This document shows positions 1,135 through 61,074 of a stretch of 64,000 bases of DNA, piece by piece. The position numbers and the translations under genes were made by a program. The DNA comes from Escherichia phage vB_EcoP_SU10, in the sequence record NC_027395.1, one strand, 5' to 3'. Below the pieces are notes generated by a model. That model had not been told where the DNA came from, searched no databases, and saw only the letters and a program-made list of their open reading frames with translations. Every line of letters starts with the position of its first letter. Position 1 is the first letter of the stretch.

Positions 1135-1353
1135 ATGAAAATGATGAAACAAGCTGCATATGGTTTAATATGTTTAGGCGCAGGTGTTGTGGTATCCACC
1201 GCAGTTCCTGTAGGCGCAGTTCATCCATTAGTAACTGTCCCTGCTCCAGTAGAGAAGCTCAGCTCTCAATGTAAGCAGAGAACAATTCAAAATAACTTAG
1301 TTGTTATTTGCCCTGATGCTGAATCTAACGCTCTGAGAAAGATACTACCTTAA
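1135..1353 (+). CDS. small membrane protein, holin candidate
   Basis: 72 aa, one hydrophobic segment (AAYGLICLGAGVVVSTAVPVGAV), AGGAGA RBS, immediately upstream of endolysin. Confidence 0.4.
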   Translation: MKMMKQAAYGLICLGAGVVVSTAVPVGAVHPLVTVPAPVEKLSSQCKQRTIQNNLVVICPDAESNALRKILP

Positions 1354-1382: not shown

Positions 1383-1874
1383 ATGGATAACGTCGCATTG
1401 CCACCTGTACAACTAAACTTAAGCCCAGCTGGAATGGAATTCATCATGAAGCATGAGGGTATGAGAACAAAGGCTTATAAAGATTCCGCAGGTATCTGGA
1501 CGATATGTGTAGGGGCTACGCGCGATATGAATGGTTATCCGGTTAGACAAGGATTAACGTATTCTATAGAGGATTGTCTAGCTCTGCTAGATAGAGACAC
1601 ACAAGACTCTGTTCGTGCTACTCAGAAGAACATAAAGGTTCCTTTACTAGTTCATGAGTTTGATGCACTCACTTCTTTCAACTTCAATGTTGGCAGTGGG
1701 GCTTTGAGCACATCTAAGTTAAGGAAGGTTATCAATGGAGAAGTGAAAGGGGATGTTTATTCCGAATTTCTTCGTTGGGATAAAATAACGGTCAGGGGAG
1801 AAAAGCAGAGAAGTCAGGGTCTTCATAACAGAAGGGTTGCAGAAGCTGATCTTTACACTGAAGGTAAATATTAA
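1383..1874 (+). CDS. endolysin, GH24-type phage lysozyme
   Basis: HEGMRTKAYKDSAGIWTICVGAT matches the catalytic Glu/beta-hairpin region of T4/P22-type lysozymes; strong RBS AAAGGAGG. Confidence 0.75.
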   Translation: MDNVALPPVQLNLSPAGMEFIMKHEGMRTKAYKDSAGIWTICVGATRDMNGYPVRQGLTYSIEDCLALLDRDTQDSVRATQKNIKVPLLVHEFDALTSFNFNVGSGALSTSKLRKVINGEVKGDVYSEFLRWDKITVRGEKQRSQGLHNRRVAEADLYTEGKY

Positions 1875-5760: not shown

Positions 5761-6729
5761 ATGGGTGCAGGTGGTTTTCGTAAGAATACTGGTCGCAACA
5801 ACACCACACTCCCGTACAACGTTGGGTTTCTCAATAATGTACAGGACACAGAAACATATAACGTAGCCGTGTATGATGAATTACAAAAAGTTAGCACAGC
5901 TACTAACCAAATGTTCCAAGCTATAGATGAAATTCACGAAGAGATTGATGTTCGTATTAAAGCTCTTAATGCAATGAATCTACAATTTGATGAGCTTGAG
6001 AATAGAATTACTACAGAGATAGAAACAGCTATTGCAGATATCCAAACCCAGATGGGGAACCTGTCCACTGAGGACATTTGGGATAACTCTGTTCAACCTC
6101 CTGTAAAACTAGAAAGCACTGTATCTGGTTTTAAGACTAGCATCGAAGGCAACACAACTAAGATTCAGACAGTAGAAGGTATTGTTAATGATCAAGGTCA
6201 AGAGATTGCTCTTGTTCAGACAGAACTACAAAATATCAACGGAAGCCTCTCTCAGTATATGAAACTCTCTGAGTATGAAGCTACGTGGGGTGTTAACTCT
6301 ACAGTCAACGGAAGGTATGCTGGGGTCAAGTTAACTAACAATGGAACAAACAGTCAATTCCAAGTAACAGCTAACAAGTTTATTGTTGGTGATGGCAGCT
6401 CTGGTAACACACCTTTTGTGTTTGAGGGTGGTAGGGCTAGGATGGAATTCGCTGACATAAAGAACGTCAATATCACAACAGCTCAGATTGCTAACGCTAG
6501 AATCCAATGGGCACAGATCGATAACGTATCCATCTCCAATGCTCAGATTCAGAACTTGTCAGCGGATAAGATTACTGCTGGCTCTATGTGGGGTTCTAAC
6601 TGGAGACTTACTGTTGGTGGGGACTTTGTTATGGGTGGCACAGGTGGGGCACAATTGTGGATGAATGGTAACAGAATAGACTTCTACGATGGAAGCGGTG
6701 CTCTGAGAATCAGGATAGGGAGTTGGTAA
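5761..6729 (+). CDS. tail fibre protein
   Basis: Start at MGAGGFRKN with GGAGGA RBS (track start 5695 overlaps the terminator); coiled-coil N-half and repeats NVNITTAQIANARIQWAQIDNVSISNAQIQNLSADKI. Confidence 0.55.
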   Translation: MGAGGFRKNTGRNNTTLPYNVGFLNNVQDTETYNVAVYDELQKVSTATNQMFQAIDEIHEEIDVRIKALNAMNLQFDELENRITTEIETAIADIQTQMGNLSTEDIWDNSVQPPVKLESTVSGFKTSIEGNTTKIQTVEGIVNDQGQEIALVQTELQNINGSLSQYMKLSEYEATWGVNSTVNGRYAGVKLTNNGTNSQFQVTANKFIVGDGSSGNTPFVFEGGRARMEFADIKNVNITTAQIANARIQWAQIDNVSISNAQIQNLSADKITAGSMWGSNWRLTVGGDFVMGGTGGAQLWMNGNRIDFYDGSGALRIRIGSW

Positions 6730-7774: not shown

Positions 7775-8557
7775 ATGGCAATTAATATGGGTATTGAAGA
7801 ACTAGACCCAATGGTTCAACAGGCTTCAAAGAAGTATGGGATTCCTGCTGCTTTGATTCATGCTGTAATCCAAAGAGAGTCTAGTGGTCGTCCTACAGTA
7901 GCCTCTGGAACTGGTCCTGTAGGTTTAATGCAGATCAGTAAAGGGTTGGCTAAAGACTACGGTTACAAACTAGAAGACAGACTTGACCCAGCAAAGAATA
8001 TTGATATGGGTGCTCGTTATATTCGAGATAACTTAAAGGCTTTTAATGGTGATGTTAAGAAAGCAATGGTTGGTTATTCAGAAGGTATTGGTGGAGCTAA
8101 GCAAATGTTCGCTGGTAAAAAGGGATTTACACCTCAAGCCCTTGACTCAATGAACAACAAACACTTTCTTCCTTTCTATGGTGATGCAGCTTCTCAGATT
8201 GCTAACCCTGTTGGAGCTTTGCAAGCTGTTCAACCAGTCAACCAGTTTAGTTCTGACTTACTAGACAGAGAGAAAGCCGCACAAGCTCCAACTCAGGCAG
8301 AGATTGCTGCTTCTAAGACAGGTGCTTTAGGCGGAAATCCAGTAGAGTTTTACTCTGATGAAGTGCAGGAAGGCGAAAACCAGAAACCTCAACAGAACTT
8401 TGGTAATGCAGTATTAGGGGTAGCTGCTATGCTTGCTGGTAAACCTCCCACTTCTCAAACAGTTCAGAGGGCAAGTGCACCACATGCAGCAGGTTCTCAG
8501 TACAGTCCACAAACACAAGCAGTGCTCAGACGTTTGGCTAGCATTGGTGTAAAGTAA
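7775..8557 (+). CDS. virion-associated lytic transglycosylase (SLT domain)
   Basis: QRESSGRPTVASGTGPVGLMQIS matches the catalytic E-S ... GLMQ motif of soluble lytic transglycosylases; RBS AAGGAGA. Confidence 0.7.
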   Translation: MAINMGIEELDPMVQQASKKYGIPAALIHAVIQRESSGRPTVASGTGPVGLMQISKGLAKDYGYKLEDRLDPAKNIDMGARYIRDNLKAFNGDVKKAMVGYSEGIGGAKQMFAGKKGFTPQALDSMNNKHFLPFYGDAASQIANPVGALQAVQPVNQFSSDLLDREKAAQAPTQAEIAASKTGALGGNPVEFYSDEVQEGENQKPQQNFGNAVLGVAAMLAGKPPTSQTVQRASAPHAAGSQYSPQTQAVLRRLASIGVK

Positions 8558-49535: not shown

Positions 49536-50003
49536 TTACTCTATCTTAACTGAAGGACAATACTTCTCTTTCTTGCTGCGATACATAACAACAATCCAGT
49601 TTGAATCACGACGCTCTTTCTTACGTCGTTTCTTTTCAGCACGAGTTTCATATGTGCTAGTTCGGTGGTCACGATATATTCCACGAAGTTCATAAAATGC
49701 CCAACCACCACCAAACACTACACCAGCCAAAGCAGCCAAAGATGAGGCACCAAGAGCAGGGGCAGCGAACCATGTCCACCAGTAAAAGGTTGACACGTCG
49801 TTGTGCCCGAGAAGTGTCCCACCTACTCCAGTAAGTGCCGCACATATAACAGATAAGAATCCAGACAGTATAACAAAACGCAAAACTGTTCGCCAGAAGT
49901 ATTCACAAAAGTTAGTCATGTTGTCCCAATAGGAATCAGAGAGACTTGACGTAGCTTTGTTGAATCTGTGCAACCATCCGTTCTTATTAACCTTAATCAT
50001 CAT
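49536..50003 (-). CDS. membrane protein
   Basis: Several hydrophobic helices and basic C-terminal tail. Confidence 0.45.
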   Translation of the reverse strand: MMIKVNKNGWLHRFNKATSSLSDSYWDNMTNFCEYFWRTVLRFVILSGFLSVICAALTGVGGTLLGHNDVSTFYWWTWFAAPALGASSLAALAGVVFGGGWAFYELRGIYRDHRTSTYETRAEKKRRKKERRDSNWIVVMYRSKKEKYCPSVKIE

Positions 50004-55936: not shown

Positions 55937-56233
55937 TCAATTATCACTGTTAATCTCCTGCTGCTTAGCAATAGCCACTCGCAAGTCTTCATTAGCACGA
56001 GCAAGGCGCAACACTTCATGATTGAGGTTCTGAAGACGTTTGTTTCTGTCTTCAACTTGCATAATAAGATCGTTGAGTGTTACTTTAACTTTCTCATTAT
56101 ACATCTCATCCACTCGGACTAGAGATTTATACATTCTTTCCCAGCTTGCTGCTTTGTTTCTTAGGACAATAAATCCTAGAACGCTGATAGTTAAACAGCT
56201 TACAAAAAGGAATTTATATATTTCTAAAGTCAT
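55937..56233 (-). CDS. membrane-anchored coiled-coil protein
   Basis: N-terminal TM FLFVSCLTISVLGFIVL then heptad-like helix. Confidence 0.4.
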   Translation of the reverse strand: MTLEIYKFLFVSCLTISVLGFIVLRNKAASWERMYKSLVRVDEMYNEKVKVTLNDLIMQVEDRNKRLQNLNHEVLRLARANEDLRVAIAKQQEINSDN

Positions 56234-56432: not shown

Positions 56433-56822
56433 TTATTCCCTAGAGCTATTATCGAACACTAAATCACCACAATACATAGGATTGGCATACCATTTTGGCA
56501 CCCCTTCGCTCTTACTCTGAAAGTAAGTCCCACTGTACAGCGGAACATAATTCTTCTTAAGGGCACGTTTAGCCAGCCGCTCGCTTTCTCCAATAGCTTG
56601 CTTAGTCATCGGATTTTTATCACGAATCAGCTTTACATAACGTTTATAAGGTTTCTCCTGTTTTAATAGTACCGGAATCCACTCAAACTGGTTCTTTTGT
56701 CTTATCACCTGTTCAGCGGTCAGTTTTCGTTGGGCCATTCTATTTATCACGGTATCCGCAACTAAAGCCTTACATGCGGTTGGCTGATTCCCTGCCTCAT
56801 AATAAATAGTCAATGTCAACAT
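56433..56822 (-). CDS. cell-wall hydrolase-like protein (SleB-type domain)
   Basis: IYYEAGNQPTACKALVADTVINRMA resembles the YAEARGE ... VA-VV-NR motif of SleB-type hydrolases. Confidence 0.45.
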   Translation of the reverse strand: MLTLTIYYEAGNQPTACKALVADTVINRMAQRKLTAEQVIRQKNQFEWIPVLLKQEKPYKRYVKLIRDKNPMTKQAIGESERLAKRALKKNYVPLYSGTYFQSKSEGVPKWYANPMYCGDLVFDNSSRE

Positions 56823-56871
56823 TAGCTGGGCCGTTGTTATCAGAACTTGCTACCTCCTGTTTTACGGGCAT

Positions 56872-56897
56872 AAAAAAGCCCCAGCCGTAGCCGGGGC
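56872..56897 (-). terminator. intrinsic terminator
   Basis: GCCCC ... GGGGC hairpin then TTTTTT on - strand. Confidence 0.45.
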
Positions 56898-56958
56898 AAA
56901 CCTGAAAGCAACACATGACCGTTGCTATAAATACACTCGCAAATGCACTTATAGCAAC

Positions 56959-56981
56959 GCAAAAAGCCGCTCAAAGGCGGC
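56959..56981 (-). terminator. intrinsic terminator
   Basis: AGCCGC-CTTTGA-GCGGCT then TTTTG on - strand. Confidence 0.45.
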
Positions 56982-57063
56982 TATGCGGAAGCTTCAAATG
57001 GGGAGAGGGCACGACGCTACAGAAAGAGCGTCATAGTACTAAAAGAGGGGGGCTATATTCCTA

Positions 57064-57507
57064 CTACTTAACCCTTGCCTCTTTGATGGGGTCAATGTAT
57101 TTTTCAACGCCCCACTTGTGTTTACTATCTGCGTAGAAAACATCAGGTGCACACTGGCTTGTCTTAGGGAAAGCCTGCGGGTCTTTCGTGCTACCCTTAA
57201 ACTTCTGTTTACCACGGGTGCGACCATTACAGAAGATTTCTAACTTCTTCTCTTCTTCTGTTTTAGCGCCCCCGCTCTGTAACAAAGAACGTTTATGATC
57301 AGCTAACAACAACGCATCAGCACGATGGACACGATGACCTACACGTTTTGCCACACTGGAAGGGACATGGGATTCAGCCTCAGCTTTTGCAGCACGACGT
57401 TTTAAACTACGCTTACTGACGTGATTAGTTGCCTTCGGCTTCTCTTTCTCCAGTTCAGAGATAGAAAAACAACGCCCGCCCTTCATGCTGATTTTAGATT
57501 TAGCCAC
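57064..57507 (-). CDS. basic early protein
   Basis: 147 aa, Lys/Arg-rich. Confidence 0.45.
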   Translation of the reverse strand: MAKSKISMKGGRCFSISELEKEKPKATNHVSKRSLKRRAAKAEAESHVPSSVAKRVGHRVHRADALLLADHKRSLLQSGGAKTEEEKKLEIFCNGRTRGKQKFKGSTKDPQAFPKTSQCAPDVFYADSKHKWGVEKYIDPIKEARVK

Positions 57508-60155: not shown

Positions 60156-60184
60156 ATTATGAATCATGTTGTTTTCGCTGTCAA
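60156..60184 (-). promoter_or_regulatory. sigma70-type early promoter
   Basis: - strand TTGACA, 17-nt spacer, CATAAT, with upstream A tract. Confidence 0.55.
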
Positions 60185-60313
60185 CCACTTTTTAATCTTT
60201 TTTCGTCGTTCCCGCTATTGGGAGGATATATCAATCAGCTTTATTTGATTGAAGACTAAGCGGTGATGCTTATCTTATGATTCATATTGTTAAAGAGCGG
60301 TTACTACATTTAC

Positions 60314-60341
60314 AGCTTAACACATCGTGTTAGCTTGTCAA
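60314..60341 (-). promoter_or_regulatory. sigma70-type promoter candidate (weak -10)
   Basis: - strand TTGACA, 16 nt, TAAGCT. Confidence 0.3.
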
Positions 60342-60639
60342 CTCTTTTTATCATCTTCTTTTAATTCCTTTCCCTTATCTCGCGTGAATCTATGCGAAAG
60401 GGCAAGATGATAAGTCTGATTTGTCTTTTAGGAATCTAGTGCGCTTTCAAGCATTGACCATTTGAAAGTATCGAACAAATGAGGCTTATTTTGTTGCTCA
60501 TCGTCCGCCTGTTCACGTATGAATCAGGAATCAATTCTAGTGGTCAACTAAGCGCCTTATAGTAATGACGTTCCCGCCACCTGTAAGACAAATCATATTT
60601 TTAAAGAGCTGGATGTTTCACGTCATCGCTGACTATGCT

Positions 60640-60668
60640 CACTATATATCAGGCTGTTTTCGGTGTCA
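60640..60668 (-). promoter_or_regulatory. sigma70-type early promoter
   Basis: - strand TTGACA, 17-nt spacer, TATAGT, upstream AAAAAGAG. Confidence 0.6.
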
Positions 60669-61074
60669 ATACTCTTTTTAAGAATATTTTCACTTTCTAG
60701 CCTGATTTTTAAAGAGCGTAGCACTTTCATTGTGCGTCTTACCGTCGGTATTCCTACCGCTCCCCGTTGAAGCCTTTTACCGTGATGCTAATCACCTATC
60801 GAGGAGTTTTTACTACTTGTTGTTACTTACTGCTTACTACGGGATTCATATTACTATACAGGAAAACCCTGTCAATACCCTTTTTTCAAATTATTTTATA
60901 TCTCACTGTTTTATAAAGGAATTTATTTTAGAGATGACAGGAACTACAAAGAAATCAGAAGAGAGAGGAACGGGAGCGCGTGATACATCATAGGAAACAG
61001 CCTGTAAAGCAATAATAAGCGGCCTATAACGCATCACAACGAGCTAAAAGGGAGTAAGGTATACAATCACCTTA

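Follow-up and report, generated by a model that had tools for sequence, protein, structure and literature searches.

What does a SleB-type cell wall hydrolase do in the early region of a virulent coliphage that already carries a complete pair of holin and endolysin genes? This question is raised by a gene at positions 56433..56822 (minus strand) of the window, i.e. the whole 64,000-nt stretch of DNA that was analyzed, which represents a phiEco32-like podophage (Kuravirus). The gene consists of an ATG start, 129 codons including this start, and a stop codon and is the homologue of phiEco32 gp117 (phi32_117). About 55 kb away and on the opposite strand, a holin gene (1135..1353, plus strand; phrog_11161, one hydrophobic segment) lies just upstream of the late GH24 (T4-type) lysozyme gene (1383..1874, plus strand; PF00959, E=5.8e-32), the canonical endolysin. 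An SLT-domain lytic transglycosylase (7775..8557, plus strand; PF01464, E=1.1e-23) is encoded among the DNA-ejection genes as an internal virion protein, and its SU10 homologue CDS20 was found in virions by mass spectrometry (PMC4281155). The initial annotation had counted three distinct peptidoglycan-active enzymes in this phage, and at the domain level this count stands, as GH24 (PF00959), SLT (PF01464) and SleB-type (PF07486) domains are encoded in one genome. Its practical weight is small, since three such domains in phiEco32-like phages are already implied by databases. The holin/GH24 pair (1135-1874) is itself flanked by a tail-fibre gene (5-1042) on one side and by a gene for a tail protein (1887-2690) on the other, and the SU10 authors noted that holin and lysozyme are absent from phages 7-11 and GAP52 (PMC4281155). 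This placement and absence suggest that the cassette was acquired within the late structural block.

Family assignment and distribution

A Pfam search with the 129-aa product yields a match to PF07486 (Hydrolase_2/SleB) of 32.2 bits (E=1.7e-7), above the curated gathering cut-off of 27 bits, and PHROG 12974 spans the protein end to end; an NCBIfam search returned nothing relevant. An exhaustive profile search among 1.84 billion representatives retrieved 76 relatives at E<=1e-3, mostly 110-200 aa in length, and 30 of these were aligned with the query. All 31 aligned sequences match PF07486 (best E=3.4e-24), and the profile of this alignment finds the SleB structures 4F55 (E=2.9e-19) and 4FET (E=1e-18), the only two solved SleB catalytic domains. 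The family profile is needed here, as a phmmer search of PDB sequences with the single protein produced only noise. The SleB-type hydrolase motif proposed by the initial annotation is therefore upheld, and the SleB/CwlJ-type assignment is established at the level of sequence and fold. In the 129-aa form, the catalytic glutamate is residue 9, the NR motif occupies residues 27-28 and the QF motif residues 45-46. Glu9 and Arg28 are invariant in the 31-sequence alignment, with Val21, Gln45 and Ala84 nearly so. The profile segment 'YhEArnqp' aligns onto 'YGESRGEP' of SleB with coinciding catalytic glutamates, in SleB the glutamate of the motif GE(S/A)RGE, and this residue, number 16 in the 136-aa form described below, is invariant across sets of 31 and 35 distant relatives, as is the arginine, with the glutamine nearly so. 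[quoted passage not shown] By homology, the phage product most likely acts as a lytic transglycosylase, with the conserved glutamate of helix alpha-1 as its catalytic residue. The essential SleB residue is numbered E157 in Bacillus cereus and E151 in Bacillus anthracis.

The 3.5 kb around the gene match 98 phage records at 80-99% identity, all of them Escherichia or Shigella phages of Gordonclarkvirinae/Kuravirus. A tblastn search detects an encoded relative of the protein in 126 phage records, with at least 99% identity in 61 and at least 80% in about 97, placing the gene in essentially every relative (about 97 Gordonclarkvirinae records). Pairwise Nei-Gojobori comparisons with 15 relatives give dN/dS values of 0.07-0.2, at dS values that reach about 0.9 among E. 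coli phages and are saturated against metagenomic sister phages. Near-universal presence and these low ratios together rule out a decaying ORF: the ORF is a genuine gene rather than a product of chance, and its product is almost certainly an intact Hydrolase_2 family protein under selection. Most records name the protein hypothetical; ShigP1 and Paul, whose proteins are identical, are labelled 'cell wall hydrolase' in GenBank, and the 100% identical SU10 protein carries the UniProt name 'Cell wall hydrolase SleB domain-containing protein'. Public records already contain the family assignment, and additional SleB-type genes outside the lysis cassette are a recognized phenomenon, common among virulent enterobacterial phages; what the present analysis adds is a probable CTG start, which implies that many records truncate the catalytic N-terminus, and a setting shielded by terminators.

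The nearest named relatives are proteins of 140-141 aa from the C3-morphotype Grimontviridae (7-11, GAP52, Privateer and CsaP_009), with about 30-36% identity. These homologues are annotated as 'endolysin', 'hydrolase' or 'lytic transglycosylase' and are encoded in the leftward early/middle arm. In Salmonella phage 7-11, two proteins bear the label 'putative endolysin': one, a Peptidase_M15_4 protein, is encoded in the middle region, and the other, the SleB-type Hydrolase_2 protein, in the early arm; the coordinates given for the two are 39019-39411 (minus strand) and 5974-6399 (plus strand). In GAP52, a lipoprotein gene with the lipobox LLGC is located two genes downstream of the SleB-type gene. 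Additionally, the window encodes a protein of 155 aa in which two or three segments are hydrophobic (49536-50003, minus strand; phi32_92 homologue, PHROG 944 'membrane protein'), and the 7-11 homologue of this protein lies two genes upstream of the 7-11 SleB-type gene. Membrane proteins of this type could be holin-like partners in those phages.

Start codon, predicted fold and localization

The annotated ATG is not preceded by a Shine-Dalgarno sequence. A Shine-Dalgarno-like AGGAGG (56853..56858, minus strand) is located 30 nt upstream of it and 9 nt upstream of a CTG that opens a probable N-terminal extension of seven in-frame codons (CTG ATA ACA ACG GCC CAG CTA; 56823..56843, minus strand). 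The site is retained, either as AGGAGG or in the form of a G-run (GGGGG), in 16/16 sequences, i.e. the window and 15 relatives. Four metagenomic sister phages share the gene order, and the 136-aa protein called in them starts at a TTG that aligns with the CTG (56843-56841) and is preceded by AGGAGGT. In Suseptimavirus and Nieuwekanaalvirus relatives, CTT stands at the position of the window's ATG, and no ATG precedes the catalytic glutamate. The records of EP335, ECBP2, KBNP1711, MLP3, SU7 and EK010 annotate a protein of 101 aa from the internal Met29, a form that omits helix alpha-1 together with the catalytic glutamate, and the coding sequence upstream of this methionine is intact in all of them. 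The only variable sites in codons 2-7 of the extension among 12 E. coli phage sequences are three synonymous third-position changes (ACA/ACG, ACG/ACA and GCC/GCA). By the codon table, 54 single changes are possible, of which 16 are synonymous, so that three out of three would arise with a chance of about 0.03.

Structure prediction points in the same direction. AlphaFold2 models reached pLDDT values of 95.5 (129 aa) and 92.5 (136 aa), and in the longer model the extension completes helix alpha-1 (residues 4-17, pLDDT 94), as in all other family members. Foldseek comparison of the 136-aa model with the PDB places SleB catalytic domains (4FET/4F55) at the top three positions with a probability of 1.00 and TM scores of 0.58-0.65 over 135 aligned columns, i.e. 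the full length. The 129-aa model yielded no meaningful PDB match and did not retrieve SleB, so that only the 136-aa form recovers these structures; the failure of the shorter form may be an effect of the prefilter or else of the incomplete first helix. In BFVD, dozens of phage SleB-type hydrolases match the model at TM scores of 0.6-0.76. The true start is therefore probably the CTG seven codons upstream of the ATG, giving a product of 136 aa. CTG is an inefficient initiator in E. coli, and initiation at the ATG or at a TTG a few codons downstream of the CTG is conceivable. The choice between the favored 136-aa form and records that begin at the internal methionine, the ATG or a TTG matters for cloning of the protein as an enzybiotic.

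The protein should be cytoplasmic, as neither the 129-aa nor the 136-aa form contains a 19-residue window that reaches a Kyte-Doolittle value of 1.6, the N-terminal region is not basic (no basic residue within the first 20 positions) and, in the AlphaFold models, the N-terminus is the helix alpha-1 of the catalytic domain that carries the catalytic glutamate. Hydropathy, N-terminal composition and models thus reveal neither the signal peptide nor the signal-anchor-release (SAR) segment of a secreted or SAR endolysin.

Transcriptional setting and neighboring genes

Three strong sigma-70-type promoters (60156..60875, minus strand), matching 10-11 of 12 consensus positions, head the leftward early unit that includes the SleB-like gene, which lies about 3.4 kb downstream on the same strand. 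For SU10, three early promoters have been listed as being 'like phage phiEco32', and those of the window correspond to them; the authors of that study class CDS69-125 as early, including CDS116, which is identical to the gene discussed here (PMC4281155). The two remaining statements of the initial annotation, location in the early region and absence of an evident signal peptide, accordingly agree with these findings, 'early' resting on position within the leftward block. Proceeding leftward from the promoters, a 302-aa gene comes first, then a hairpin resembling a terminator (58311-58284); several small genes lead on to a 147-aa gene (57064-57507). After the latter, an intrinsic-terminator-like hairpin termed T1 (56965..56982, minus strand; 6 bp and then T5), an 18-bp hairpin (56920-56959) and a second intrinsic-terminator-like hairpin termed T2 (56878..56897, minus strand; an 8-bp stem with 7 G-C pairs and then T6) succeed each other, the last one immediately upstream of the SleB-like gene. 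The 240-nt spacer with these three stable hairpins has a fold z-score of -4.3. In the interval from T1 to the gene, neither a sigma-70-like promoter nor one of the gp36-type (phage sigma, tAATGTAtA) was found, and expression therefore appears to depend on terminator read-through. As the gene follows two tandem terminators, its expression is probably low, judging from this sequence context. Mass spectrometry of a PEG-precipitated SU10 lysate identified 34 proteins, and CDS116 was not one of them (PMC4281155).

The slot between the 147-aa and SleB-like genes (56823-57063) varies among relatives: phiEco32 carries gp118 and gp119 ('tail protein', 798 bp), 172-1 an HTH gene and ShigP1 a 378-bp ORF, while the window, like SU10, contains only the hairpin spacer. 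A phi32_118-type ORF of 39 aa (56797-56916, minus strand) runs across T2 into the start of the SleB-like gene; it is not conserved, its ATG being lost in EP335, and it is probably not a gene. Conservation of the 21 nt upstream of the ATG for RNA pairing with T2 (inverted repeat I2) was also considered and rejected, as the ECBP2-type substitutions are not compensatory (13/16 pairs are reduced to 11/16) and phiEco32, 172-1 and ShigP1 keep the 21 nt without T2 upstream.

The immediate neighbors of the SleB-like gene show no match to holin or spanin families. Next downstream (55937-56233, minus strand) is a gene whose 98-aa product combines an N-terminal transmembrane helix with a long coiled coil. 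The name 'DNA helicase' that this product bears in public records and in PHROG 12154 looks like a propagated error; the protein has no Pfam or NCBIfam match. Its architecture resembles that of an i-spanin, but neither family support nor a lipobox-bearing partner lipoprotein was found.

Role of the protein and comparison with known systems

The reading favored here, at close to an even chance, is that the protein serves as an accessory, holin-released endolysin. Its gene would be read as part of the leftward early unit, past two terminator hairpins, and translation would probably begin at the weak CTG, 9 nt after the conserved Shine-Dalgarno site, so that only small amounts would be made. Having no export signal, the protein would stay in the cytoplasm until the late holin permeabilizes the inner membrane; only then would it gain access to the murein and cleave the glycan strands, as a second endolysin beside the GH24 lysozyme. 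The low dose is in line with hairpins T1 and T2, the lack of an intervening promoter in the interval downstream of T1, a start that is either CTG or an ATG without Shine-Dalgarno sequence, and non-detection by mass spectrometry. A role in lysis is suggested by analogy, as the homologues of 7-11, GAP52, Privateer and CsaP_009 are annotated as endolysins and, for a Vequintavirinae homologue, both an implication in lysis and toxicity upon expression have been reported (PMC7344957). Several observations speak against it. By position, and by the SU10 authors' classification of the identical gene, expression would be early and not late, and the gene lies in the early block 55 kb from holin and endolysin, on the other strand and without holin or spanin linkage; the complete holin/GH24 pair makes a second lysin look redundant; and the toxic Vequintavirinae homologues carry a signal peptide, unlike the protein of the window. 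Moreover, SleB depends on muramic delta-lactam, which is absent from E. coli murein. The strong purifying selection alongside different main endolysins, GH24 in Kuravirus and an M15 peptidase in 7-11, could indicate a distinct role.

Such a role might lie outside lysis altogether. A cytoplasmic SleB-fold protein could bind or cleave a soluble wall intermediate, such as recycling muropeptides or precursors, or, in a variant of this idea, interfere with host wall synthesis or division during host takeover. The neighboring small early genes are thought to act in host takeover (PMC8948821), and the missing export signal, the strong purifying selection and the retention of SleB-type genes beside GH24 (here), an M15 peptidase (7-11) and the 'lysozyme' ORF41 of the T5-like phage AKFV33 (PMC3326045) would all fit. 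The active site, however, appears unchanged, with the Glu, NR and QF motifs all kept. We know of no SleB-family member that acts on soluble intermediates, and the bond cut by lytic transglycosylases, MurNAc-beta-1,4-GlcNAc, does not occur in Lipid II or the nucleotide precursors. This explanation seems unlikely, if worth keeping in mind. Somewhat less probable still is a broader proposal, in which the SleB-type protein provides a conserved early function common to unrelated virulent enterobacterial phages (phiEco32-, 7-11-, T5- and rV5-like) irrespective of their main endolysin, is held at a very low dose by the tandem terminators and the CTG start, and acts intracellularly or on the wall before lysis. 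If true, interference with murein synthesis or recycling, or priming of the sacculus, would be examples of such pre-lysis action.

The remaining explanations are improbable to differing degrees. Export or release by an unrecognized route, with remodeling of the murein during infection (e.g. for a superinfection block or an envelope-spanning phage structure), draws on the signal peptides of some Vequintavirinae SleB-type homologues (PMC7344957) and on the membrane-anchored coiled-coil protein encoded next downstream. It is rendered improbable by the absence of a signal, SAR or transmembrane segment from a protein whose N-terminus forms a helix that belongs to the structure of the catalytic domain, and the downstream gene is 200 bp away, with a separate promoter annotated in the gap in the SU7 record. 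An equally small chance is given to a redundant relic, i.e. an older endolysin superseded by the holin/GH24 cassette among the tail genes, barely expressed and drifting to loss. Loss of the canonical start codon (TTG to CTG), the tandem terminators upstream, the missing mass spectrometry signal of the identical SU10 protein and the reported absence of holin and lysozyme from 7-11 and GAP52 (PMC4281155) would be explained. Against this stand a coding sequence kept intact over long divergence (dN/dS 0.07-0.2 with dS up to about 0.9), a presence in essentially every relative and invariant catalytic residues. The M15 peptidase endolysin of 7-11 further indicates that the SleB type was not the sole ancestral lysin, and a scenario in which it represents the ancestral sole endolysin of C3-morphotype podophages was dismissed for the same reason. 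Finally, a virion-associated enzyme that digests murein during DNA ejection is very improbable: the muralytic domain is all that recommends it, the gene is located in the early and not in a structural block, the identical SU10 protein is not among the virion/lysate proteins identified by mass spectrometry, although the SLT internal virion protein was detected there, and the latter (7775-8557) already fills the entry role.

Compared with known systems, the copies in other Gordonclarkvirinae, including phiEco32 gp117 and SU10 CDS116, are identical or near-identical proteins at the same genomic position, without substantive difference. Bacillus SleB and CwlJ share the catalytic domain, the fold (4F55 and 4FET, TM 0.58-0.65) and the position of the glutamate, and, like CwlJ, the phage protein is a bare catalytic domain. 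It differs from SleB in lacking a signal peptide and an N-terminal peptidoglycan-binding domain, in an identity of only 16-17% and in being encoded by a virulent coliphage whose host murein is devoid of the muramic delta-lactam that SleB needs. A main endolysin together with a SleB-type gene far from the holin has been described for T5-like phages (PMC3326045; PMC11180984), and which of the enzymes these phages use was stated as still to be determined (PMC11180984). PVP-SE1/BME3 likewise combine a main endolysin with a distant SleB-type gene (PMC12210895), and Certrevirus follows the same pattern with a homologue that carries a signal peptide and is toxic on expression, the CR3 homologue being said to be implicated in lysis (PMC7344957). 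An extra SleB-type gene away from the lysis cassette thus recurs in several families of therapeutic coliphages. With the second endolysins of 7-11/GAP52, T5-like and rV5/PVP-SE1-like phages, the protein of the window shares its small Hydrolase_2 domain, an early or regulatory module as its location, the distance from the holin and the coexistence with a main endolysin of another type. Unlike the window protein, the Vequintavirinae versions have a reported signal peptide, and they are also longer; the T5-like versions were not retrieved by tblastn at E<=1e-3. With the lambda R lytic transglycosylase and T4 E, the accessory endolysin proposed here would share its mode of action as a cytoplasmic muralytic enzyme that reaches the wall only via holin lesions; these two belong to a different fold family and are encoded by late genes adjacent to the holin, whereas the SleB-like gene is early, distant and apparently weakly expressed.
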